A stretch of DNA of 10,377 bases, from IMG/VR virus record IMGVR_UViG_2690316246_000004; one strand, given 5' to 3'. A program made the translations under genes and the position numbers. This stretch comes from a virus. Its lineage: Duplodnaviria; Heunggongvirae; Uroviricota; Caudoviricetes. How positions within the stretch are numbered: position 1 is the stretch's first letter; the number at the start of each line of letters is the position of its first letter. Of the stretch, positions 1 to 10,377 are shown one piece after another. The notes beneath the pieces are model-generated. The model searched no databases. It saw only the letters and a program-made list of their open reading frames with translations, and was not told the DNA's origin.

Positions 1-372
1 GAAGGAGTGTCCGTTAAACTCAGGCTACCTCAGTCTGCTGATTTGAGTCGCTACAGTGGCACGGTGGTTAACCGTCCGACGTTTTTTGCTTTTGCAAAAG
101 GCGCGGGTGTGATGGGGGAAGCGGGACCTGAAGCCATTCTGCCACTGCGTCGCGGTGCTGATGGTAAGCTGGGGGGTGTGGCGGATACTGGTGGTTCAGG
201 CATGGTGATGTTTGCCCCGCAGTACAACATTGAGATCAATAACGATGGCACGAACGGGCAGATAGGTCCGGCTGCCCTGAAGGTGGTTTATGACCTCGGG
301 AAAAAAGCGGCCGCGGACTTTATGCAACAGCAGGCCCGTGATGGTGGCCGGTTAAGTGGAGCATACCGGTAA
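1..372 (+). CDS. H: Tail tape-measure protein (lambda gpH-like), C-terminal fragment; 5' end lies outside the window
   Basis: Open frame from the window edge to TAA at 370-372, whose last base is the first base of the M start codon (TAATG). Position immediately upstream of M/L/K/I/J matches lambda gene order. Identity is from synteny and recalled similarity, not a search. Confidence 0.8.
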   Translation, partial: EGVSVKLRLPQSADLSRYSGTVVNRPTFFAFAKGAGVMGEAGPEAILPLRRGADGKLGGVADTGGSGMVMFAPQYNIEINNDGTNGQIGPAALKVVYDLGKKAAADFMQQQARDGGRLSGAYR

Positions 373-701
373 TGGAGACGTTTCACTGGAAAGTGCGCCC
401 GGATATGAATGTGGTATCAGAGCCGAAAGTGGTGACAGTGAAGCTGGGCGATGGTTATGAACAGCGTCGTGCGGCGGGACTGAATAACCAGTTGTCGACT
501 TACAGCGTGAAGATACGTGTTCGTAAAGGTGAACACCCATTTTTAAAAGCCTTTCTGGAACGGCACGGTGGCGTCCGCGCATTTCAGTGGACGCCACCTT
601 ATGACTGGAAGCCGATCAGGGTGGTTTGTCGTAAATGGTCGGCAAGCGTGGGGGCGTTGTGGGTAACCATAACGGCAGATTTTGAACAGGTCGTGGCATA
701 G
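372..701 (+). CDS. M: Minor tail protein M (lambda gpM-like), 109 aa
   Basis: ATG at 372 overlapping the H stop; length equals lambda gpM; sits between H and L as in lambda. Confidence 0.9.
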   Translation: METFHWKVRPDMNVVSEPKVVTVKLGDGYEQRRAAGLNNQLSTYSVKIRVRKGEHPFLKAFLERHGGVRAFQWTPPYDWKPIRVVCRKWSASVGALWVTITADFEQVVA

Positions 702-710
702 GAGGCTCTG

Positions 711-1409
711 ATGCAGGATATTCCACAGGAAACACATCATGAGACGACACGCCTCACTCAGTCAGCCCAGGTGGTGCTCTGGGAAATCGATCTGACAGAG
801 GTCGGTGGTGAACGTTATTTTTTCTGTAATGAGCAGAACGAAAAAGGTGAGCCGGTTACCTGGCAGGGGCGGCAGTATCAGGCATACCCCATTCAGGGGA
901 CGGGATTTGAACTGAACGGCAAGGGCAGTGCTGCCCGTCCGACACTGACGGTTTCTAACCTGCACGGAATGGTCACCGGGATGGCGGAAGACCTGCAGAG
1001 TCTGGTCGGCGGAACGGTGGTCAGGCGTAAGGTTTACGCCCGTTTTCTGGATGCGGTGAACTTCGTCAACGGAAACAGCGACGCCGATCCGGAACAGGAG
1101 GTGATCAGCCGCTGGCGCATCGAGCAGTGCAGCGAACTGAGCGCGGTCAGTGCCTCTTTTGTGCTGGCCACACCAACGGAGACGGATGGCGCGGTTTTCC
1201 CGGGGCGTATCATGCTGGCGAATACCTGTATGTGGACTTACCGTTCTGATGAGTGTGGTTACACGGGCAGGGCAGTGGCTGACGAGTTCGACAAACCAAC
1301 GACGGATATCCGGAAGGACAAATGCAGCAAGTGTATGCGCGGGTGTGAGTTGCGCAACAATACCGGTAATTTCGGCGGTTTCCTTTCCATCAATAAACTT
1401 TCTCAGTAA
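711..1409 (+). CDS. L: Minor tail protein L (lambda gpL-like), 232 aa, with C-terminal cysteine cluster
   Basis: GGAGG at 701-705 precedes ATG 711. Length equals lambda gpL. C-terminal motif C-x8-C...C-x2-C-x3-C (nt ~1227-1346) fits the Fe-S cluster-binding gpL family. Confidence 0.92.
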   Translation: MQDIPQETHHETTRLTQSAQVVLWEIDLTEVGGERYFFCNEQNEKGEPVTWQGRQYQAYPIQGTGFELNGKGSAARPTLTVSNLHGMVTGMAEDLQSLVGGTVVRRKVYARFLDAVNFVNGNSDADPEQEVISRWRIEQCSELSAVSASFVLATPTETDGAVFPGRIMLANTCMWTYRSDECGYTGRAVADEFDKPTTDIRKDKCSKCMRGCELRNNTGNFGGFLSINKLSQ

Positions 1410-1413
1410 ATCC

Positions 1414-2157
1414 ATGACACAGACAGAATCAGCGATTCTGGCGCACGCCCGGCGATGTGCGCCAGCGGAGTCGTGTGGCTTCGTGGTAAGAACGCCGGAG
1501 GGAGACAGGTATCTTCCCAGCGAGAATATCTCCGGTGAGCCGGAGGAACGGTTCCGGATGGCTCCGGAGGACTGGCTGCGGGCACAAATGCAGGGTGAGA
1601 TTGTGGCGCTGGTCCACAGTCATCCCGGTGGTCTGCCCTGGCTGAGTGAGGCTGACCGGCGGCTGCAGGTGCAGAGTGATTTGCCGTGGTGGCTGGTCTG
1701 CCGGGGGGCGATTCACAAGTTCCGCTGTGTGCCACATCTTACCGGGCGGCGCTTTGAGCACGGGGTGACGGACTGTTACACGCTGTTCCGGGATGCTTAT
1801 CATCTGGCAGGGATTGAGATGCCGGATTTTCATCGCGGGGATGACTGGTGGCGTAACGGTCAGAATCTCTATCTTGACAATATGGAGGTGACGGGTTTTT
1901 ACCGTGTCGCACTGACAGAGGCACAGCCGGGCGATGTGCTGCTGTGCTGTTTTGGTTCATCGGTGCCGAATCATGCCGCCATTTACTGCGGTGACGGCGG
2001 GCTGCTGCACCATATTCCTGAACAACTGAGCAAACGAGAGAGGTACACCGACAAATGGCAGCGACGCACACACTCCCTCTGGCGTCACCGGGCATGGCGC
2101 GCATCTGCCTTTACGGGGATTTACAACGATTTGGTCGCCGCATCGACCTTCGTGTGA
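1414..2157 (+). CDS. K: Tail tip assembly protein K (allele 1), 247 aa, JAB/MPN (JAMM) plus NlpC/P60 domains
   Basis: ATG 1414 lies 4 nt after the L stop. JAMM motif H-S-H-x7-S-x2-D (HSHPGGLPWLSEAD) at nt 1615-1656. NlpC/P60-like Cys (GVTDCYTLF, nt ~1774) and His (VPNHAAIY). The C-terminal 199 aa correspond to lambda K as I recall its classical annotation. Confidence 0.9.
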   Translation: MTQTESAILAHARRCAPAESCGFVVRTPEGDRYLPSENISGEPEERFRMAPEDWLRAQMQGEIVALVHSHPGGLPWLSEADRRLQVQSDLPWWLVCRGAIHKFRCVPHLTGRRFEHGVTDCYTLFRDAYHLAGIEMPDFHRGDDWWRNGQNLYLDNMEVTGFYRVALTEAQPGDVLLCCFGSSVPNHAAIYCGDGGLLHHIPEQLSKRERYTDKWQRRTHSLWRHRAWRASAFTGIYNDLVAASTFV

Positions 2158-2242
2158 AAACGGGGGCTGAAGCCATCCGGGCACTGGCCACACAGCTCCC
2201 GGCGTTTCGTCAGAAACTGAGTGACGGCTGGTATCAGGTGCG
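2055..2242 (+). CDS. I: Tail assembly protein I, 5' fragment (62 codons), cut off by the N-run
   Basis: Starts MAATHTLPLASPGMARICLYGDL..., identical to the starts of the complete I copies at 2822 and 4395. Overlaps the K 3' end out of frame, as in lambda. Ends at the gap. Confidence 0.75.
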
Positions 2243-2253
2243 NNNNNNNNNNN
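2243..2253. other. Run of 11 N (scaffold gap / unresolved join)
   Basis: Ns in the sequence. The flanks are discontinuous: I codon 62 upstream, mid-K downstream. Confidence 0.99.
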
Positions 2254-2924
2254 TAAGAACGCCGGAGGGGGAAAGATATTTCCCCTGCGTGAATATCTCC
2301 GGTGAGCCGGAGGCGTATTTCCGTATGTCGCCGGAAGACTGGCTGCAGGCAGAGATGCAGGGTGAGATTGTGGCGCTGGTCCACAGTCATCCCGGTGGTC
2401 TGCCCTGGCTGAGTGAGGCCGACCGGCGGCTGCAGGTGCAGAGTGATTTGCCGTGGTGGCTGGTCTGCCGGGGGGCGATTCACAAGTTCCGCTGTGTGCC
2501 ACATCTTACCGGGCGGCGCTTTGAGCACGGGGTGACGGACTGTTACACGCTGTTCCGGGATGCTTACCATCTGGCGGGGATTGAGATGCCGGATTTTCAT
2601 CGTGAGGATGACTGGTGGCGTCACGGTCAGAATCTCTATCTGGATAATCTGGAGGCCACAGGGCTGTATCAGGTGCCGTTGTCAGCGGCGCAGCCGGGCG
2701 ATGTGCTGCTGTGCTGTTTTGGTTCATCGGTGCCGAATCATGCCGCCATTTACTGTGGTGACGGCGAGCTGCTGCACCATATTCCTGAACAACTGAGCAA
2801 ACGAGAGAGGTATACCGACAAATGGCAGCGACGCACACACTCCCTCTGGCGTCACCGGGCATGGCGCGCATCTGCCTTTACGGGGATTTACAACGATTTG
2901 GTCGCCGCATCGACCTTCGTGTGA
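2254..2924 (+). CDS. K: Tail tip assembly protein K (allele 2), 5'-truncated at the gap
   Basis: Resumes at the position equivalent to nt ~1487 of K allele 1 (RTPEGERYFPCVNISGEPEAYFRMSPEDW...). Contains the same JAMM and NlpC/P60 motifs. TGA at 2922-2924. Confidence 0.8.
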
Positions 2925-3463
2925 AAACGGGGGCTGAAGCCATCCGGGCACTGGCCACACAGCTCCCGGCGTTTCGTCAGAAACTGAGTGACGGCTGGTA
3001 TCAGGTGCGCATTGCCGGGCGTGATGCAGGTGAAACCGAATTGTCTGCCCGTCTTAATGAGCCGCTGGCAAATGGTGCAGTGATCCACATAGTACCGCGT
3101 CTGGTGGGAGCTAAAAGTGGCGGTGTGTTTCAGGCGGTGCTGGGGGCGGCTGTTATGGCGGTTGCTATATGGATGCCGGGGGTAGGAATTATGGCGAGTA
3201 ATCTGCTGTTTTCTCTCGGTGCCAGTATGACGCTTGGCGGTGTTGCACAGATGCTGGCACCGAAAGCCAGAACTCCCCGTACACAGACAACGGATAACGG
3301 TAAGCAGAACACGTATTTCTCGTCACTGGATAACATGGTTGCCCAGGGCAATGTTCTGCCCGTTCTGTACGGTGAAATGCGCGTGGGGTCACGTGTGGTT
3401 TCTCAGGAGATCAGCACGGCAGACGAAGGGGATGGTGGTCAGGTTGTGGTGATTGGTCGCTGA
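2822..3463 (+). CDS. I: Tail assembly protein I (allele 2), 213 aa, ubiquitin-like N-domain ending in Gly-Gly
   Basis: Complete ORF overlapping the K 3' end by 103 nt out of frame. Diglycine at residues 100-101 (nt 3119-3124). Glycine-rich hydrophobic middle; C-terminus GEMRVGSRVVSQEISTADEGDGGQVVVIGR is shared with the allele-3 copy. Confidence 0.88.
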   Translation: MAATHTLPLASPGMARICLYGDLQRFGRRIDLRVKTGAEAIRALATQLPAFRQKLSDGWYQVRIAGRDAGETELSARLNEPLANGAVIHIVPRLVGAKSGGVFQAVLGAAVMAVAIWMPGVGIMASNLLFSLGASMTLGGVAQMLAPKARTPRTQTTDNGKQNTYFSSLDNMVAQGNVLPVLYGEMRVGSRVVSQEISTADEGDGGQVVVIGR

Positions 3464-3481
3464 TGCAAAATGTTTTATGTG

Positions 3482-3510
3482 AAACCGCCTGCGGGCGGTT
3501 TTGTCGTTTA
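3482..3510 (+). terminator. Stem-loop with U-rich tail in the I-J intergenic region (candidate weak terminator or RNA-stability hairpin)
   Basis: aaaccgcc-tgcg-ggcggttt is a perfect 8-bp stem, followed by tgtcgttt. Lies 14 nt upstream of the J start. Confidence 0.35.
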
Positions 3511-3523
3511 TGGAGCGTGAGGA

Positions 3524-3880
3524 ATGGGTAAAGGCAGCAGTAAGGGGCATACCCCGCGCGAAGCGAAGGACAACCTGAAATCCACGCAGTTGCTGAGTGT
3601 GATTGATGCCATCAGCGAAGGGCCGGTTGACGGTCCGGTGGATGGATTAAAAAGCGTGCTGCTGAACGGTACGCCGGTCCTGGACAGCGAGGGGAAGACA
3701 AACTTTTCCGGTGTTACGGTGGTGTTCCGTGCAGGTGAGCAGGAGCAGACACCGCCGGAGGGTTTTGAATCCTCCGGCTCCGAGACGGTGCTGGGTACGG
3801 AAGTGAAATATGACACGCCGATCACCCGGACCATCACGTCGGCAAACATCGACCGTCTGCGCCTGACCTTCGGTGTGCAG
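3524..3880 (+). CDS. J: Host specificity / central tail fibre protein J, 5' fragment (119 codons), cut off by a single N
   Basis: MGKGSSKGHTPREAKDNLKSTQLLSVIDAISEGPV... matches the J start seen again at 5127. Bases 3632-3880 are identical to 5927-6175. Confidence 0.8.
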
Positions 3881-3881
3881 N
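3881..3881. other. Single N marking a discontinuity (J 5' region joins directly to mid-K)
   Basis: N in the sequence. Upstream is J codon 119; downstream is K at the position equivalent to nt 2309. Confidence 0.95.
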
Positions 3882-4497
3882 GGAGGCGTATTTCCGTATG
3901 TCGCCGGAAGACTGGCTGCAGGCAGAGATGCAGGGTGAGATTGTGGCACTGGTCCACAGCCACCCCGGTGGTCTGCCCTGGCTGAGTGAGGCCGACCGGC
4001 GGCTGCAGGTGCAGAGTGATTTGCCGTGGTGGCTGGTCTGCCGGGGGGCGATTCACAAGTTCCGCTGTGTGCCACATCTTACCGGGCGGCGCTTTGAGCA
4101 CGGGGTGACGGACTGTTACACGCTGTTCCGGGATGCTTACCATCTGGCGGGGATTGAGATGCCGGATTTTCATCGTGAGGATGACTGGTGGCGTCACGGT
4201 CAGAATCTCTATCTGGATAATCTGGAGGCCACAGGGCTGTATCAGGTGCCGTTGTCAGCGGCGCAGCCGGGCGATGTGCTGCTGTGCTGTTTTGGTTCAT
4301 CGGTGCCGAATCATGCCGCCATTTACTGTGGTGACGGCGAGCTGCTGCACCATATTCCTGAACAACTGAGCAAACGAGAGAGGTATACCGACAAATGGCA
4401 GCGACGCACACACTCCCTCTGGCGTCACCGGGCATGGCACGCATCTGCCTTTACGGGGATTTGCAACGATTTGGCCGCCGCATCGACCTTCGTGTGA
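3882..4497 (+). CDS. K: Tail tip assembly protein K (allele 3), 5'-truncated at the N
   Basis: Same frame and motifs as allele 2, with synonymous nucleotide differences and a divergent C-terminus (WHASAFTGICNDLAAASTFV). The ORF-track start at 3898 is an internal Met. Confidence 0.8.
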
Positions 4498-5066
4498 AAA
4501 CGGGTGCCGAAGCCATCCGGGCGATGGCCACACAGCTCCCTGCGTTTCGTCAGAAGCTGAGCGACGGCTGGTATCAGGTGCGTATTGCCGGGCAGGATGT
4601 TAGCACGTCCGGATTAACGGCACAGTTACATGAGGCTCTGCCTGACGGCGCTGTGATTCATATTGTTCCCAGAGTCGCCGGGGCCAAGTCAGGTGGTGTA
4701 TTCCAGATTGTCCTGGGAGCAGCCGCCATTGCCGGATCATTCTTTACCGCCGGAGCCACCCTTGCAGCATGGGGGGCTGCCATTGGTGCCGGTGGTATGA
4801 CCGGCATTCTGTTTTCTCTCGGTGCCAGTATGGTGCTCGGCGGTGTGGCTCAGATGCTGGCACCGAAAGCCAGAACTCCCCGCACACAGACAACGGATAA
4901 CGGTAAGCAGAACACCTATTTCTCCTCACTGGATAACATGGTTGCCCAGGGCAATGTTATGCCTGTTCTGTATGGTGAAATGCGCGTGGGGTCACGTGTG
5001 GTATCTCAGGAGATCAGCACGGCAGACGAAGGGGACGGTGGTCAGGTTGTGGTGATTGGTCGCTGA
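4395..5066 (+). CDS. I: Tail assembly protein I (allele 3), 223 aa
   Basis: Complete ORF, same length as lambda gpI, overlapping K by 103 nt. Differs from allele 2 by a 10-residue indel in the glycine-rich hydrophobic segment. Confidence 0.9.
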   Translation: MAATHTLPLASPGMARICLYGDLQRFGRRIDLRVKTGAEAIRAMATQLPAFRQKLSDGWYQVRIAGQDVSTSGLTAQLHEALPDGAVIHIVPRVAGAKSGGVFQIVLGAAAIAGSFFTAGATLAAWGAAIGAGGMTGILFSLGASMVLGGVAQMLAPKARTPRTQTTDNGKQNTYFSSLDNMVAQGNVMPVLYGEMRVGSRVVSQEISTADEGDGGQVVVIGR

Positions 5067-5126
5067 TGCAAAATGTTTTATGTGAAATCGCCTCCGGGCG
5101 GTTTTATCGTTTATGGAGCATGACGA

Positions 5127-5915
5127 ATGGGTAAAGGCAGCAGTAAGGGGCATACCCCGCGCGAAGCGAAGGACAACCTGAAGTCCACGCAGCTGCTGAG
5201 TGTGATCGATGCCATCAGCGAAGGGCCGGTTGAAGGTCCGGTGGATGGATTAAAAAGCGTGCTGCTGAACAGTACGCCGGTGCTGGACAGTGAGGGGAAT
5301 ACCAACATCTCCGGCGTCACGGTGGTGTTCCGGGCAGGTGAGCAGGAGCAGTCACCGCCGGAGGGATTTGAATCCTCCGGCTCCGAGACGGTGCTGGGTA
5401 CGGAAGTGAAATATGACACGCCGATCACCCGGACCATCACGTCGGCAAACATTGACCGACTGCGTTTTACCTTCGGTGTACAGGCACTGGTGGAAACCAC
5501 CTCAAAGGGAGACAGGAATCCGTCTGAAGTTCGCCTGCTGGTTCAGATACAGCGTAACGGTGGCTGGGTGACGGAAAAAGACATCACCATTAAGGGCAAA
5601 ACCACTTCGCAGTATCTGGCCTCGGTGGTGGTGGGTAACCTGCCGCCGCGCCCGTTTAATATCCGGATGCGCAGGATGACACCGGACAGCACCACAGACC
5701 AGCTGCAGAACAAAACGCTCTGGTCGTCGTACACCGAAATCATCGATGTGAAACAGTGCTACCCGAACACGGCACTGGTCGGCGTACAGGTGGATTCGGA
5801 GCAGTTCGGCAGCCAGCAGGTGAGCCGTAATTATCATCTTCGCGGGCGCATTCTGCAGGTGCCGTCGAACTATAACCCGCAGACGCGGCAATACAGCGGT
5901 ATCTGGGACGGAACG
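5127..5915 (+). CDS. J: Host specificity protein J (allele 3), 5' fragment (263 codons), cut off by the N-run
   Basis: Same start as 3524, with substitutions ([17 protein letters not shown] versus [17 protein letters not shown]). Ends at the gap at a position equivalent to nt 6605 of the downstream J. Confidence 0.85.
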
Positions 5916-5926
5916 NNNNNNNNNNN
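5916..5926. other. Run of 11 N (scaffold gap / unresolved join)
   Basis: Ns in the sequence. Upstream is J codon 263; downstream restarts at J codon ~37. Confidence 0.99.
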
Positions 5927-8900
5927 GGTCCGGTGGATGGATTAAAAAGCGTGCTGCTGAACGGTACGCCGGTCCTGGACAGCGAGGGGAAGACAAACTT
6001 TTCCGGTGTTACGGTGGTGTTCCGTGCAGGTGAGCAGGAGCAGACACCGCCGGAGGGTTTTGAATCCTCCGGCTCCGAGACGGTGCTGGGTACGGAAGTG
6101 AAATATGACACGCCGATCACCCGGACCATCACGTCGGCAAACATCGACCGTCTGCGCCTGACCTTCGGTGTGCAGGCACTGGTGGAAACCACCTCAAAGG
6201 GTGACCGGAATCCGTCGGAAGTCCGCCTGCTGGTTCAGATACAGCGTAACGGTGGCTGGGTGACGGAAAAAGACATCACCATTAAGGGCAAAACCACTTC
6301 GCAGTATCTGGCCTCGGTGGTGGTGGGTAACCTGCCGCCGCGCCCGTTTAATATCCGGATGCGCAGGATGACACCGGACAGCACCACAGACCAGCTGCAG
6401 AACAAAACGCTCTGGTCGTCGTACACCGAAATCATCGATGTGAAACAGTGCTACCCGAACACGGCGCTGGTCGGCGTGCAGGTGGATTCAGAGCAGTTCG
6501 GTAACCAGCAGGTGAGTCGCAATTATCATCTTCGCGGGCGCATTCTGCAGGTGCCGTCGAACTATAACCCGCAGACGCGGCAATACAGCGGTATCTGGGA
6601 CGGAACGCTTAAGCCAGCATACAGCAACAACATGGCCTGGTGTCTGTGGGACATGCTCACTCATCCGCGCTACGGCATGGGGAAACGTCTTGGTGCGGCA
6701 GATGTGGACAAATGGGCGCTGTATGTCATCGGCCAGTACTGCGACCAGTCAGTGACGGACGGATTTGGCGGCACGGAGCCGCGCATCACCTGTAACTCTT
6801 ACCTGACCACACAGCGTAAGGCGTGGGATGTTCTCAGTGATTTCTGCTCGGCGATGCGCTGTATGCCGGTATGGAACGGACAGATGCTGACGTTCGTGCA
6901 GGACCGACCGTCGGATAAGGTGTGGACCTATAACCGCAGTAATGTGGTGATGCCGGACGATGGCGCGCCGTTCCGCTACAGCTTCAGCGCCCTGAAGGAC
7001 CGCCATAATGCCGTTGAGGTGAACTGGATTGACCCGGATAACGGCTGGGAGACGGCGACAGAGCTTGTGGAGGATACGCAGGCCATTGCCCGTTACGGTC
7101 GTAATGTCACGAAGATGGATGCCTTTGGCTGTACCAGCCGGGGGCAGGCACACCGCGCCGGGCTGTGGCTGATTAAAACGGAACTGCTGGAAACGCAGAC
7201 CGTGGACTTCAGCGTGGGCGCAGAAGGGCTTCGCCATGTACCGGGTGATGTCATTGAAATCTGCGATGATGATTATGCCGGTATCAGCACCGGTGGTCGC
7301 GTACTGGCGGTGAACAGCCAGACCCGGACGCTGACGCTCGACCGTGAAATCACGCTGCCGTCCTCCGGTACCACGCTGATAAGCCTGGTTGACGGAAGTG
7401 GCAATCCGGTCAGCGTGGAGGTCCAGTCCGTCACCGACGGCGTGAAGGTGAAAGTGAGCCGGGTTCCTGACGGCGTTGCAGAATACAGCGTGTGGGGGCT
7501 GAAGCTGCCGACGCTGCACCAGCGATTGTTCCGCTGCGTGAGTATCCGTGAGAACGACGACGGCACGTATGCCATCACCGCCGTGCAGCATGTGCCGGAA
7601 AAAGAGGCCATCGTGGATAACGGGGCACACTTTGACGGTGACCGGCGCGGCACGGTGAATGGTGTCACGCCGCCAGCGGTGCAGCACCTGACTGCCGAAG
7701 TCACCGCAGACAGCGGGGAATATCAGGTGCTGGCGCGATGGGACACGCCGAAGGTGGTGAAGGGTGTGAGCTTCCTGCTTCGCCTGACCGTGGCAGCGGA
7801 CGACGGCAGTGAGCGGCTGGTCAGCACAGCCAGGACGACGGAAACCACATACCGCTTCAGGCAGCTGGCGCTGGGGAATTACAGTCTGACAGTCCGGGCG
7901 GTAAATGCCCGGGGGCAGCAGGGCGATCCGGCGTCGGTATCGTTCCGGATTGCCGCACCGGCAGCGCTGTCGCGGATTGAGCTGACGCCGGGCTATTTTC
8001 AGATAACCGCCACGCCGCATCTTGCGGTTTATGATCCGACGGTACAGTTTGAGTTCTGGTTCTCGGAAAAGCGGATTGCGGATATCAGGCAGGTTGAAAC
8101 CACAGCACGCTATCTTGGCACGGCGCTGTACTGGATAGCCGCCAGTATCAATATCAGGCCGGGCCATGATTATTATTTTTACGTTCGCAGTGTGAACACC
8201 GTTGGCAAATCGGCATTTGTGGAGGCCATCGGTCGGGCGAGCGATGATGCAGAAGGTTATCTGAATTTTTATAAAGGGTTGATCAATAAAACGCATCTCG
8301 GCAAGGAGTTGTGGACGCAGATTGATAACGGTCAGCTTGCGCCGGACCTGACTGAAATCAGGACGTCCATTACGAATGTCAGCAATGAAATCACGCAAAC
8401 CGTCAATAAAAAACTGGAAAATCAGAGTGCTGCAATCCAGCAGATACAGAAAGTTCAGGTTGATACAAATAATAACCTGAACAGCATGTGGGCTGTGAAG
8501 CTGCAACAGATGAAGGACGGACGCCTTTATATTGCGGGTATCGGTGCCGGTATTGAGAATACGCCAGCAGGAATGCAGAGTCAGGTGCTGCTGGCGGCAG
8601 ACAGGATTGCGATGATTAATCCTGCGAATGGCAACACAAAGCCGATGTTTGTTGGTCAGGGCGATCAGATATTCATGAACGACGTGTTCCTGAAATGCCT
8701 GACGGCTCCGACCATTACCAGCGGCGGTAATCCTCCGGCATTTTCCCTGACACCTGGCGGACGGCTGACGGCGAAAAATGCCGATATCAGCGGTAACGTG
8801 AACGCGAACTCCGGGACGCTCAACAACGTCACGATTAATAAGAACTGTCGGGTTCTGGGAAAATTGTCCGCGAACCAGATTGAAGGCGATCTCGTTAAAA

Positions 8901-9298
8901 CAGTGGGCAAACCTTTCCCACGGGACTCCCGGGCACCGGAGAGGTGGCCATCAGGGACCATTACCGTCAGGGTTTATGACGATCAGCCGTTTGATCGGCA
9001 AATTGTTATTCCCGCGGTGGCGTTTCGCGGTGCTAAACATGAGCGGAAGAATAACAATATTTATTCGTCATGCCGCCTGATAGTGAAGAAAAACGGTGCT
9101 GAAATTTATAACCGAACGACCCTGGATAATACGCTGATATATACGGGTGTTATTGATATGCCTGCCGGTCACGGTCACATGACGCTGGAGTTTTCTGTAT
9201 CGGCATGGCTGGTAAATGGCTGGTATCCCACAGCAAGTATCAGCGATTTGCTGGTTGTGGTGATGAAGAAAGCCACTGCAGGCATCACGATTAGCTGA
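5927..9298 (+). CDS. J: Host specificity / central tail fibre protein J, 5'-truncated by the gap (codon ~37 to stop); lambda-like C-terminal receptor-binding region
   Basis: Continuous 1123-codon frame. First 249 nt identical to 3632-3880. C-terminus ...[44 protein letters not shown] closely resembles my recollection of the lambda gpJ C-terminus (LamB-binding domain). The ORF-track start at 5933 is a GTG inside the protein. Confidence 0.9.
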
Positions 9299-9317
9299 AT
9301 TTTATAACCCAGATACG

Positions 9318-9343
9318 GGCACCAGAAATGGTGCCTTTTTTAT
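9318..9343 (+). terminator. Rho-independent terminator downstream of J
   Basis: ggcacc-agaaat-ggtgcc stem-loop followed by TTTTTTATT, about 20 nt after the J stop. Confidence 0.6.
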
Positions 9344-9365
9344 TGCAGAAAAGCGAGAGGTAATT

Positions 9366-9965
9366 ATGCGTAAAGTTTGTGCAGCCATTTTGTCCGCAGC
9401 CATTTGCCTGGCCGTATCCGGTGCGCCTGCATGGGCGTCTGAACATCAGTCCACGCTGAGCGCCGGGTATCTTCAGACCCATACTGATATGCCAGGCAGC
9501 GATGACCTGAAGGGCATTAACGTGAAATACCGTTATGAGTTTACGGACACGCTGGGGCTGATTACGTCATTCAGTTATGCCAACGCTGAAGATGAGCAAA
9601 AAACGCATTACAGCGATACCCGCTGGCATGAGGATTCCGTGCGTAACCGCTGGTTCAGCGTGATGGCGGGGCCGTCTGTGCGCGTGAATGAATGGTTCAG
9701 CGCGTATGCGATGGCGGGCGTGGCTTACAGCCGTGTGTCGACCTTCTCCGGGGATTATCTCCGCGTAACTGACAACAAGGGGAAAACGCACGATGTGCTG
9801 ACCGGAAGTGATGGCGGTCGCCACAGCAACACGTCTCTGGCGTGGGGGGCTGGCGTGCAGTTTAACCCGACCGAATCCGTGGCCATTGACCTTGCTTATG
9901 AAGGTTCCGGCAGTGGTGACTGGCGCACTGACGGTTTCATCGTGGGTGTCGGTTATAAGTTCTGA
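9366..9965 (+). CDS. lom: Lom outer-membrane protein (Ail/Lom/OmpX beta-barrel family), 199 aa
   Basis: GAGAGG RBS before ATG 9366. Signal-peptide-like N-terminus (MRKVCAAILSAAICLAVSGAPAWA, then SEHQ). Alternating beta-strand pattern; C-terminus GVGYKF ends in Phe, typical of outer-membrane beta-barrels. Position after J as in lambda. Confidence 0.9.
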   Translation: MRKVCAAILSAAICLAVSGAPAWASEHQSTLSAGYLQTHTDMPGSDDLKGINVKYRYEFTDTLGLITSFSYANAEDEQKTHYSDTRWHEDSVRNRWFSVMAGPSVRVNEWFSAYAMAGVAYSRVSTFSGDYLRVTDNKGKTHDVLTGSDGGRHSNTSLAWGAGVQFNPTESVAIDLAYEGSGSGDWRTDGFIVGVGYKF

Positions 9966-9992
9966 TTAGCCAGGTAACACAGTGTTATGACT

Positions 9993-10017
9993 GCCCGCTG
10001 GTTCAGGCGGGCTTTTT
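9993..10017 (+). terminator. Rho-independent terminator downstream of lom
   Basis: gcccgc-tggttcag-gcgggc stem followed by TTTTT; located between the lom stop and the stf start. Confidence 0.55.
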
Positions 10018-10028
10018 GTGGGGTGAAT

Positions 10029-10355
10029 ATGGCAGTAAAGATTTCAGGTGTACTGAAAGATGGGGCGGGTAAACCTGTCGTAAATTGTGCGATTGAACTG
10101 CGGGCCAGAAGAACCAGTCCGACCGTTGTGGCACACGTTGTTGCCACTTGCGTGACGGACAATAACGGTGCTTATGTGATTGAGGCTGAGCCGGGGTATT
10201 ACGAGGTTGCGCTTCACTGTAACGGCTGGCAGCCAACCCGTGTCGGGGATATTGATGTGGCACCGACTGATGCACCGGGGACACTGAACGCGTTTCTGAA
10301 TGCACCAAAGGATGGTGATTTACGTCCGGAGGTGATGAAGTGTCAGCGCCAGTGA
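10029..10355 (+). CDS. stf: Side tail fibre protein N-terminal domain homologue (lambda Stf-like), 108-aa ORF
   Basis: MAVKISGVLKDG... matches the lambda Stf N-terminus as recalled. The ORF stops at TGA 10353-10355, and the other two frames also stop within about 10 nt. I prefer ATG 10029 over the upstream ATG 9987, which lies inside the terminator stem. Confidence 0.6.
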   Translation: MAVKISGVLKDGAGKPVVNCAIELRARRTSPTVVAHVVATCVTDNNGAYVIEAEPGYYEVALHCNGWQPTRVGDIDVAPTDAPGTLNAFLNAPKDGDLRPEVMKCQRQ

Positions 10356-10377
10356 TATAAGACGGTAATTCGCCATT

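Follow-up and report, generated by a model that had tools for sequence, protein, structure and literature searches.

An apparent triple K-I-J array in a lambda-like prophage tail module is most probably an assembly artefact

The window, meaning the whole stretch of 10,377 nucleotides that was analysed (IMG/VR record IMGVR_UViG_2690316246_000004), carries the tail-tip genes of a lambda-like prophage, among which M, L, K (JAB and NlpC/P60), the multi-domain J, I and Lom all score above the Pfam gathering threshold. Its only non-ACGT bases are 11 Ns at 2243-2253, a single N at 3881 and 11 Ns at 5916-5926, precisely where the original prediction had placed them, and these runs divide the window into four segments, S1 to S4. 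Two alleles of the module, A and B, are represented in the segments; both are lambda-like tail-tip modules, with a mutual identity of 88-96%. The features are:

1-2242, plus strand: segment S1, allele A (Pfam, alignment and A/B site typing)
7-372, plus strand: C-terminal remnant of the tape-measure gene (S1)
372-701, plus strand: M (S1; Pfam)
711-1409, plus strand: L (S1; Pfam)
1414-2157, plus strand: K, 247 aa, with JAB and NlpC/P60 domains (S1; Pfam)
2055-2242, plus strand: I codons 1-62, broken off at 2242 (S1)
2243-2253, no strand: first N-run, 11 N, very probably a misjoin leading from I codon 62 back to K codon 25
2254-3880, plus strand: segment S2, an A/B mosaic (site typing and alignment)
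2256-2924, plus strand: K codons 26-247, with a truncated JAB domain (S2; Pfam)
2814-3009, plus strand: S1/S2 merge point, an exact 196-nt overlap with S1 2047-2242
2822-3463, plus strand: I, whole (S2)
3524-3880, plus strand: J codons 1-119 (S2)
3881, no strand: single N, very probably a misjoin leading from J codon 119 back to K codon 43
3882-5915, plus strand: segment S3, allele B (N-free B loci and site typing)
Ending at 4497, plus strand: K codons 44-247 (S3)
4395-5066, plus strand: I, whole (S3)
5127-5915, plus strand: J codons 1-263 (S3)
5916-5926, no strand: third N-run, 11 N, very probably a misjoin leading from J codon 263 back to J codon 37
5927-10377, plus strand: segment S4, for the most part allele A (Pfam, alignment and site typing)
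5927-9298, plus strand: J codons 37-1159, stop at 9298 (S4)
9366-9965, plus strand: lom (S4; Pfam)
9987-10355, plus strand: truncated N-terminus of the side tail fibre (S4)

Mapping of the genes reproduced exactly the codons at which the sequence had been said to stop (I 62, J 119 and J 263) and, for the last segment, to restart (J ~37). The other two restarts, earlier described as mid-K, do fall within K, but the word is loose: K has 247 codons, and the restarts lie at about codon 25 and codon 43. Their position appears central only when an over-long ORF of 335 aa (1150-2157) is read as K. Three ORFs run across the N-runs (2055-2924, an I::K fusion; 3524-3985; and 5127-5945), and these are by-products of the joins, as had been proposed for the I-K and J-K fusions. 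An exact-protein look-up with the J ORF that follows the gap found no record. GC content and skew are both smooth across all the joins, with no composition anomaly at any of them.

Comparison of the segments with each other gave identities of 93.8% for S1 and S2 (over 756 nt), 92.4% for S1 and S3, 90.2% for S2 and S3, with a strongly divergent C-terminal half of I, and 95.7% for S3 and S4 (over 681 nt). The repeated blocks had been described as distinct alleles and not identical copies, which agrees with this overall range of 90-96%, but does not extend to two perfect matches: the end of S2 (3632-3880) is identical to the start of S4 (5927-6175) over 249 nt, and the end of S1 is identical to S2 2814-3009 over 196 nt. 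Because of these exact overlaps, three of the four segments can be merged. We also considered whether the k-mer size or the assembler could be read from the stretches shared at contig ends, and rejected this, since their lengths (196, 87, 66, 36, 16 and 249 nt) disagree and fit no one k-mer size.

The relationship of the segments to contiguous DNA was established against L073, a sister contig free of Ns, and against ten closed chromosomes of 4.6-4.9 Mb (L074-L083). S1 is identical to the sister contig at 2242 of 2242 positions, beyond which that contig continues directly through I and J, and it is 99.9% identical to the closed chromosomes (L074 9291-11532). From 2814 to 3880, its 3' two-thirds, S2 agrees at 100% with this continuation and with the ten closed genomes, and S4 matches both at 99.2%. 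The segments are thus non-collinear or overlapping relative to single-copy references: on L074 the sequence steps back at every N-run, by 756, about 1572 and 681 nt in turn, as expected from the earlier statement that the sequence restarts upstream after every run. Every discontinuity coincides with Ns, and real bases cross none of the three, again as had been stated. When 2243-3009 and 3881-6175 are deleted, the merged path (S1 + 3010-3880 + 6176-10377) is 7315 nt long, which is exactly the length of the reference module (L074 9291-16605), and none of its genes is interrupted: besides K it encodes M (109 aa), L (232 aa), I (213 aa), J (1159 aa), Lom (199 aa) and Stf-N (122 aa). Each of the ten closed chromosomes has a single IS-flanked M-L-K-I-J-lom-stf' module. 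Chromosomes matching at 99-100% are IS-rich, and several of their accessions are presumably Shigella sonnei; among complete E. coli genomes the best identity is only ~97%. One accession, CP102341, appears in one paper, only as the origin of a class 2 integron integrase.

Taken as given, the sequence does contain real direct repeats, arranged head-to-tail and 0.7-1.6 kb long, and the junctions are hidden from inspection under Ns. It could therefore be read as a genuine tandem amplification, with K'-I-J' present three times and the junctions left unread by the assembler. We regard this as extremely improbable. A recent amplification would give identical units, whereas the copies diverge to the extent noted above and each has its counterpart in a natural allele at a locus of its own; likewise, a tandem array has one breakpoint, whereas the three junctions here all differ in theirs. 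The exact segment overlaps of 196 and 249 nt are typical of unmerged contigs. Furthermore, K-I-J is single-copy in the ten closed chromosomes and in three N-free sister contigs, and nearly always so in phage records (275 places in 266 records). A search of 2.9 million viral contigs for any of the three junctions with 0-30 bridging real bases returned no matches, nor did the literal junction with 11 wildcards, whereas in a control each junction flank alone was present in between 10 and 59 of 73 loci retrieved from viral contigs. Bases for the tandem junctions are thus absent from the window, where only Ns stand, from the contigs and from the closed relatives.

Sister scaffolds show the same kind of defect elsewhere. 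Non-collinear joins made with a single N occur at other positions in L007, L010, L032, L047 and L060, and the two B pieces on either side of an N in L047 have 170 nt in common. The original prediction had attributed the window to concatenated contigs or a mis-traversed repeat graph, an origin that is probably correct, being supported by the collinearity with closed genomes, the merged path, the native context of B, these sister joins and the absent bridges.

The two alleles have distinct native settings, and the segments stem from distinct repeat copies, each with its own context. In closed genomes allele A is a defective, IS-bounded remnant of the form H'-M-L-K-I-J-lom-stf', in which the tape-measure gene is reduced to its last ~121 codons with an IS element adjacent, and the side tail fibre breaks off after ~122 codons. 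S3, on the other hand, is 99.7% identical to and collinear with allele B in the N-free loci L052, L053, L029, L084 and L086, and the B loci are intact lambda-like prophages with an ordinary single K-I-J. An exact 60-mer query from the I gene of S3 had 53 matches in viral contigs, the window not being among them, and 0 in genome contigs. In complete E. coli genomes with a match, lambdoid tail modules occupy a median of 3 and a maximum of 17 places, and the best S1-like and S2-like matches fall at separate loci on the same E. coli chromosome.

It may be asked whether A and B come from one genome at all. The joins could be artefactual and the sample nonetheless mixed or contaminated, with two strains carrying one module each. 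No closed chromosome was seen to carry both alleles, and the context of the modules varies by strain: a Com/Mom block directly adjoins the B module in L085, while in L081 it sits a few kb upstream of the A module, with other genes and a gap without called genes in between. We nevertheless consider a mixed sample improbable. Sister isolate scaffolds hold both alleles (L007, and UViG 2690316210_000007, which comprises L047 and L058), some of them (L010, L047) have a third allele besides, and a genome usually has several lambdoid modules. From the presence of both alleles in these isolate scaffolds we infer that A and B reside in one genome.

Typing of the A/B-informative sites revealed a mosaic structure in all segments but the first, where the sites are A-type with two exceptions. 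S2 is B-type at 2270-2354, A-type at 2375-2390, B-type at 2420-2813 and A-type at 2866-3877; its 5' part (2254-2813) is 99.5% identical to allele B, and the best full-length match to S2 reaches 98.4%. S3 has six A-type sites, at 5606-5729 and 5876. B-type patches in S4 lie at 7036, 7156, 7518-7526, 7687-7693, 7954-8107 and 9404-9407, and S4 differs from all A loci at the same positions (99.2% to each). Nearly all departures from pure A or pure B in S2, S3 and S4 are switches to the other allele; a site that is neither occurs once in S4 (6817) and not at all in S2 or S3. The original prediction of several near-identical modules was right about multiple sources, but two main alleles suffice, S2, S3 and S4 being A/B mosaics.

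Part of this mosaicism might be real, with the N joins alone as artefacts, S2 representing a third, recombinant module or the J patch at 7954-8107 in S4 a gene conversion. Mosaicism is natural in lambdoid tail genes, sister scaffolds do contain third alleles (L010, 90-95% identical to A and B; L047), and the patch is a clean block of 29 consecutive informative sites. Against this, neither the S2 combination nor the S4 patch is present in any of the 86 related loci, and the A patch at 2375-2390, just three sites within B sequence and flanked by 20-29 identical bases, is of the kind that bubble-switching in a repeat graph yields. On balance, some real mosaicism of this kind seems rather unlikely. 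The fuller version, in which gene conversion from a co-resident lambda-like prophage gave J the ~150-nt block at 7954-8107 and several lesser patches, perhaps alongside a third K-I-J module of the S2 type, we hold to be unlikely too, and slightly more doubtful. Were it true, the window would be a snapshot of tail-gene exchange under way between prophages sharing one chromosome, with the host-specificity gene, J, as the recipient.

We therefore favour, with a probability of roughly 0.93, the reading that the K-I-J array is an artefact of assembly or scaffolding, that the true A locus is single-copy, and that S3, like the 5' part of S2, is a stray piece of B. The source genome would be an IS-rich chromosome of the Escherichia/Shigella type with at least two lambda-like tail-tip modules, 88-96% identical, and the assembler, whose behaviour we likewise infer, would have been unable to phase modules A and B through their common stretches. 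The outcome would be four overlapping contigs, in part chimeric, which were presumably set end to end by their start position on the module with spacers of 11, 1 and 11 Ns. On this reading the merged path described above would be the true A locus, with each gene present once, and the stray B pieces would be native elsewhere in the genome. An invertible or cassette array for switching host range was also considered and rejected: a Pfam scan found no recombinase domain in any ORF, and the inverted repeats are short (19-27 nt) and 70-85% complementary, consistent with chance.

The apparent triple repeat is most probably no real biological feature, and what lies here would be one ordinary defective lambda-like tail module. 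The significance of the case is one of data hygiene, with no biological importance of its own: protein catalogues and prophage or viral collections would take in as real the fusion ORFs (I::K and J::K), the truncated copies of K and J and the apparent triplication, and the same defect is present in several IMG/VR entries of sister assemblies, namely the five scaffolds with misjoins listed above. Before a duplication, a fusion or a novel architecture is claimed from the prophage tail regions of draft scaffolds, any short N-run in them, even a single N, should accordingly be suspected of marking a misjoin.

Set beside known systems, the window resembles repeat-induced misassembly in having a gap at every discontinuity, negative implied gap sizes, exact overlaps between neighbours, a consensus chimeric between copies and the same behaviour elsewhere in sister assemblies; no departure from that pattern was seen in the window sequence. 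With genuine tandem amplification it shares the head-to-tail direct repeats of 0.7-1.6 kb, but differs from it in its non-identical units, its non-uniform and unsequenced junctions and the lack of repeats in closed relatives. Compared with the phage lambda tail-tip module (M, L, K, I, J, lom, stf), module A of the closed genomes is defective, its tape-measure and side tail fibre genes being cut; nevertheless, once the redundant pieces are removed, the merged path restores the gene order of lambda along with its Pfam domains, and S3 is ~96% identical at the DNA level to phages 434 and lambda.

Ambiguous bases in the window are confined to exactly three runs (11 N at 2243-2253, one at 3881 and 11 at 5916-5926), which delimit four segments, S1 to S4. 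Pfam scans and the ORF list identified the genes as a lambda-type tail-tip module, J among them, and the K-I-J repeats are genuinely present in the sequence as given:

1-2242, S1, ending after I codon 62
7-372, C-terminal remnant of the tape-measure gene
372-701, M
711-1409, L
1414-2157, K (JAB + NlpC/P60)
from 2055, I
2254-3880, S2, beginning again at K codon 25/26 and ending after J codon 119
3882-5915, S3, beginning again at K codon 43/44 and ending after J codon 263
5927-10377, S4, beginning again at J codon 37
9366-9965, Lom
9987-10355, truncated N-terminus of the side tail fibre

The original prediction gave the I and J boundaries exactly, while its "mid-K" restarts were loose. Read from the ATG at 2055, I shares 103 nt with the end of K (2055-2157), and gene callers place its start differently in closed genomes, yielding 213, 200 or 180 aa. 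An antisense ORF of 585 aa (6749-8506, minus strand) lies wholly within J and is most likely a shadow ORF of the kind that long, strongly codon-biased genes produce, not a true gene.

Among E. coli complete genomes, the best identity to the window was only ~97%, and the best S1-like and S2-like matches lay at different loci within one chromosome. Several tail-tip modules per chromosome are normal in this species, with a median of 3 places and a maximum of 17. From IMG/VR we collected 73 related loci by exact-pattern scans, including an N-free sister contig (L073, 7358 nt) that holds S1 at 2242/2242 positions and runs on collinearly through I and J. S2 is 100% identical to this contig over 2814-3880, its differences being confined to its 5' part, and S4 is 99.2% identical. 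Looking up exact matches to the L protein yielded ten closed, IS-rich chromosomes of 4.6-4.9 Mb, each with a single M-L-K-I-J-lom module (allele A) and IS elements on either side. The window maps to 9291-16605 of one of these, L074, and at the N-runs the position on L074 steps back by 756, about 1572 and 681 nt in turn, which bears out the earlier claim that the runs separate non-collinear segments. Joining S1, 3010-3880 and 6176-10377 gives 7315 nt, exactly the length of the L074 interval, with intact M (109 aa), L (232), K, I (213), J (1159), Lom (199) and Stf-N (122); this path differs from the sister contig at 38 positions, every one in J.

The module in the closed chromosomes is a defective remnant (window 1-372 and 9987-10377; L074 7577-9260 and 16997-18134). 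The tape-measure gene is reduced to its final ~121 codons, adjoining an IS3-family element, and the side tail fibre stops short after ~122 codons, a second IS following ~400 nt further on. The upstream IS ends roughly 30-100 nt from window position 1 (L074 9291).

Pairwise comparison of the copies gave identities of 93.8% for S1/S2 (over 756 nt), 92.4% for S1/S3, 90.2% for S2/S3, where the C-terminal half of I is highly divergent, and 95.7% for S3/S4 (over 681 nt). The original description of distinct alleles rather than identical copies missed exact overlaps: S2 3632-3880 equals S4 5927-6175 (249 nt), S2 2814-3009 equals the final 196 nt of S1, S2 2309-2374 the initial 66 nt of S3, and S4 6521-6607 the final 87 nt of S3. 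On account of these overlaps, S1, S2 and S4 behave like overlapping contigs left unmerged.

A second allele, B, matches S3 at 99.7% identity with no gap or N; it resides in complete lambda-like prophages that carry capsid, tail tube, tape measure, M, L, K, I, J, stf and tfa (for example L084-L086, one of them a closed chromosome, L052, L053 and L029). Using L074 as the A reference and L084 as the B reference, we typed every site at which they differ. S1 is A throughout except for two B-type sites, 1734 and 1740; S2 is B at 2270-2354, A at 2375-2390, B at 2420-2813 and A at 2866-3877; S3 is B except for A-type sites at 5606-5729 and 5876; and S4 is A with B-type patches, the largest (7954-8107) spanning 29 consecutive informative sites. 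In S2 and S3 every site fits A or B, and S4 has a single exception (6817), so the entire window can be written as a walk switching between two resident alleles. Such a walk is what a repeat graph holding two unphaseable copies of 90-96% identity would put out. Alleles A and B may instead stem from a mixed sample, though sister isolate scaffolds holding both favour co-residence.

Within S2, the B-type K part (2254-2813) carries a three-site A-type island (2375, 2387 and 2390) edged by merely 20-29 identical bases, and from 2814 onward the segment is 100% A; this combination was found in none of the 86 related loci. Further B-type patches in S4 lie at 7036, 7156, 7518-7526, 7687-7693 and 9404-9407. 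At the S4 patch positions the ten closed genomes and the sister contigs all have A-type bases, and the B-type bases in the host-specificity gene J of S4 reflect either a chimeric consensus or real gene conversion. Some mosaic patches may be real conversions.

A real tandem amplification would require three independent events, each with a breakpoint of its own and each concealed under Ns, as well as divergent rather than identical units, each equal to a separately located allele; we consider it very improbable. Across 2.9 million viral contigs, the right flank of each of the three junctions was never found 0-30 bases after its left flank, and a search with a fixed 11-base gap returned nothing either. 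The single flanks are each present in 10-59 of the 73 fetched viral-contig loci; in the references each right flank is found upstream of the left one or else on the other allele. The joins show no anomaly in composition, which stays smooth across them. A cassette or inversion system was also considered and rejected, there being no recombinase and no meaningful inverted repeats.

Five related IMG/VR entries, from sister isolate assemblies, likewise have single Ns linking non-collinear or overlapping lambdoid tail pieces, at other coordinates. L007 (N at 5497) is A as far as the start of I and B from the end of H thereafter; L010 (N at 3113) is B as far as mid-I and then a third allele from L; L047 has three Ns (8199, 9658 and 11532), the B pieces flanking one of them overlapping by 170 nt; and L032 (N at 8215) and L060 (N at 898) behave similarly. 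Since junction positions vary between sister assemblies, the structure is not heritable. Single-N misjoins are systematic in this isolate batch and inflate its apparent tail-gene duplications and fusions. The third allele (L010 3114-6446; L047 2531-8198) is about 90% identical to A and 95% or 79-89% to B, and the number of lambdoid tail modules in the sister genomes is probably three or more.

The closed single-copy genomes, the 7315-nt path and the allele typing together support, by comparison with other assemblies, the proposal that the array arose from concatenated contigs or a mis-traversed repeat graph, and we put the probability that it is an artefact rather than a real feature at about 93%. 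Its main use is to caution about prophage regions joined by Ns, both in draft scaffolds and in the viral catalogues built from them.

A SASA/DUF1378/DUF826/Com/Mom block directly adjoins a truncated B-type tape-measure gene in L085, a B-type locus (1-3848), whereas in the closed chromosome L081 (301-4602) it is followed downstream by a Q-antiterminator region, then a gap without called genes and then the A module. This difference in position suggests that prophages within the lineage have undergone rearrangement or recombination with one another. Phages 434 and lambda match the S3 allele at ~96% identity, and in both of them, as in every allele-B prophage examined, K-I-J is single.
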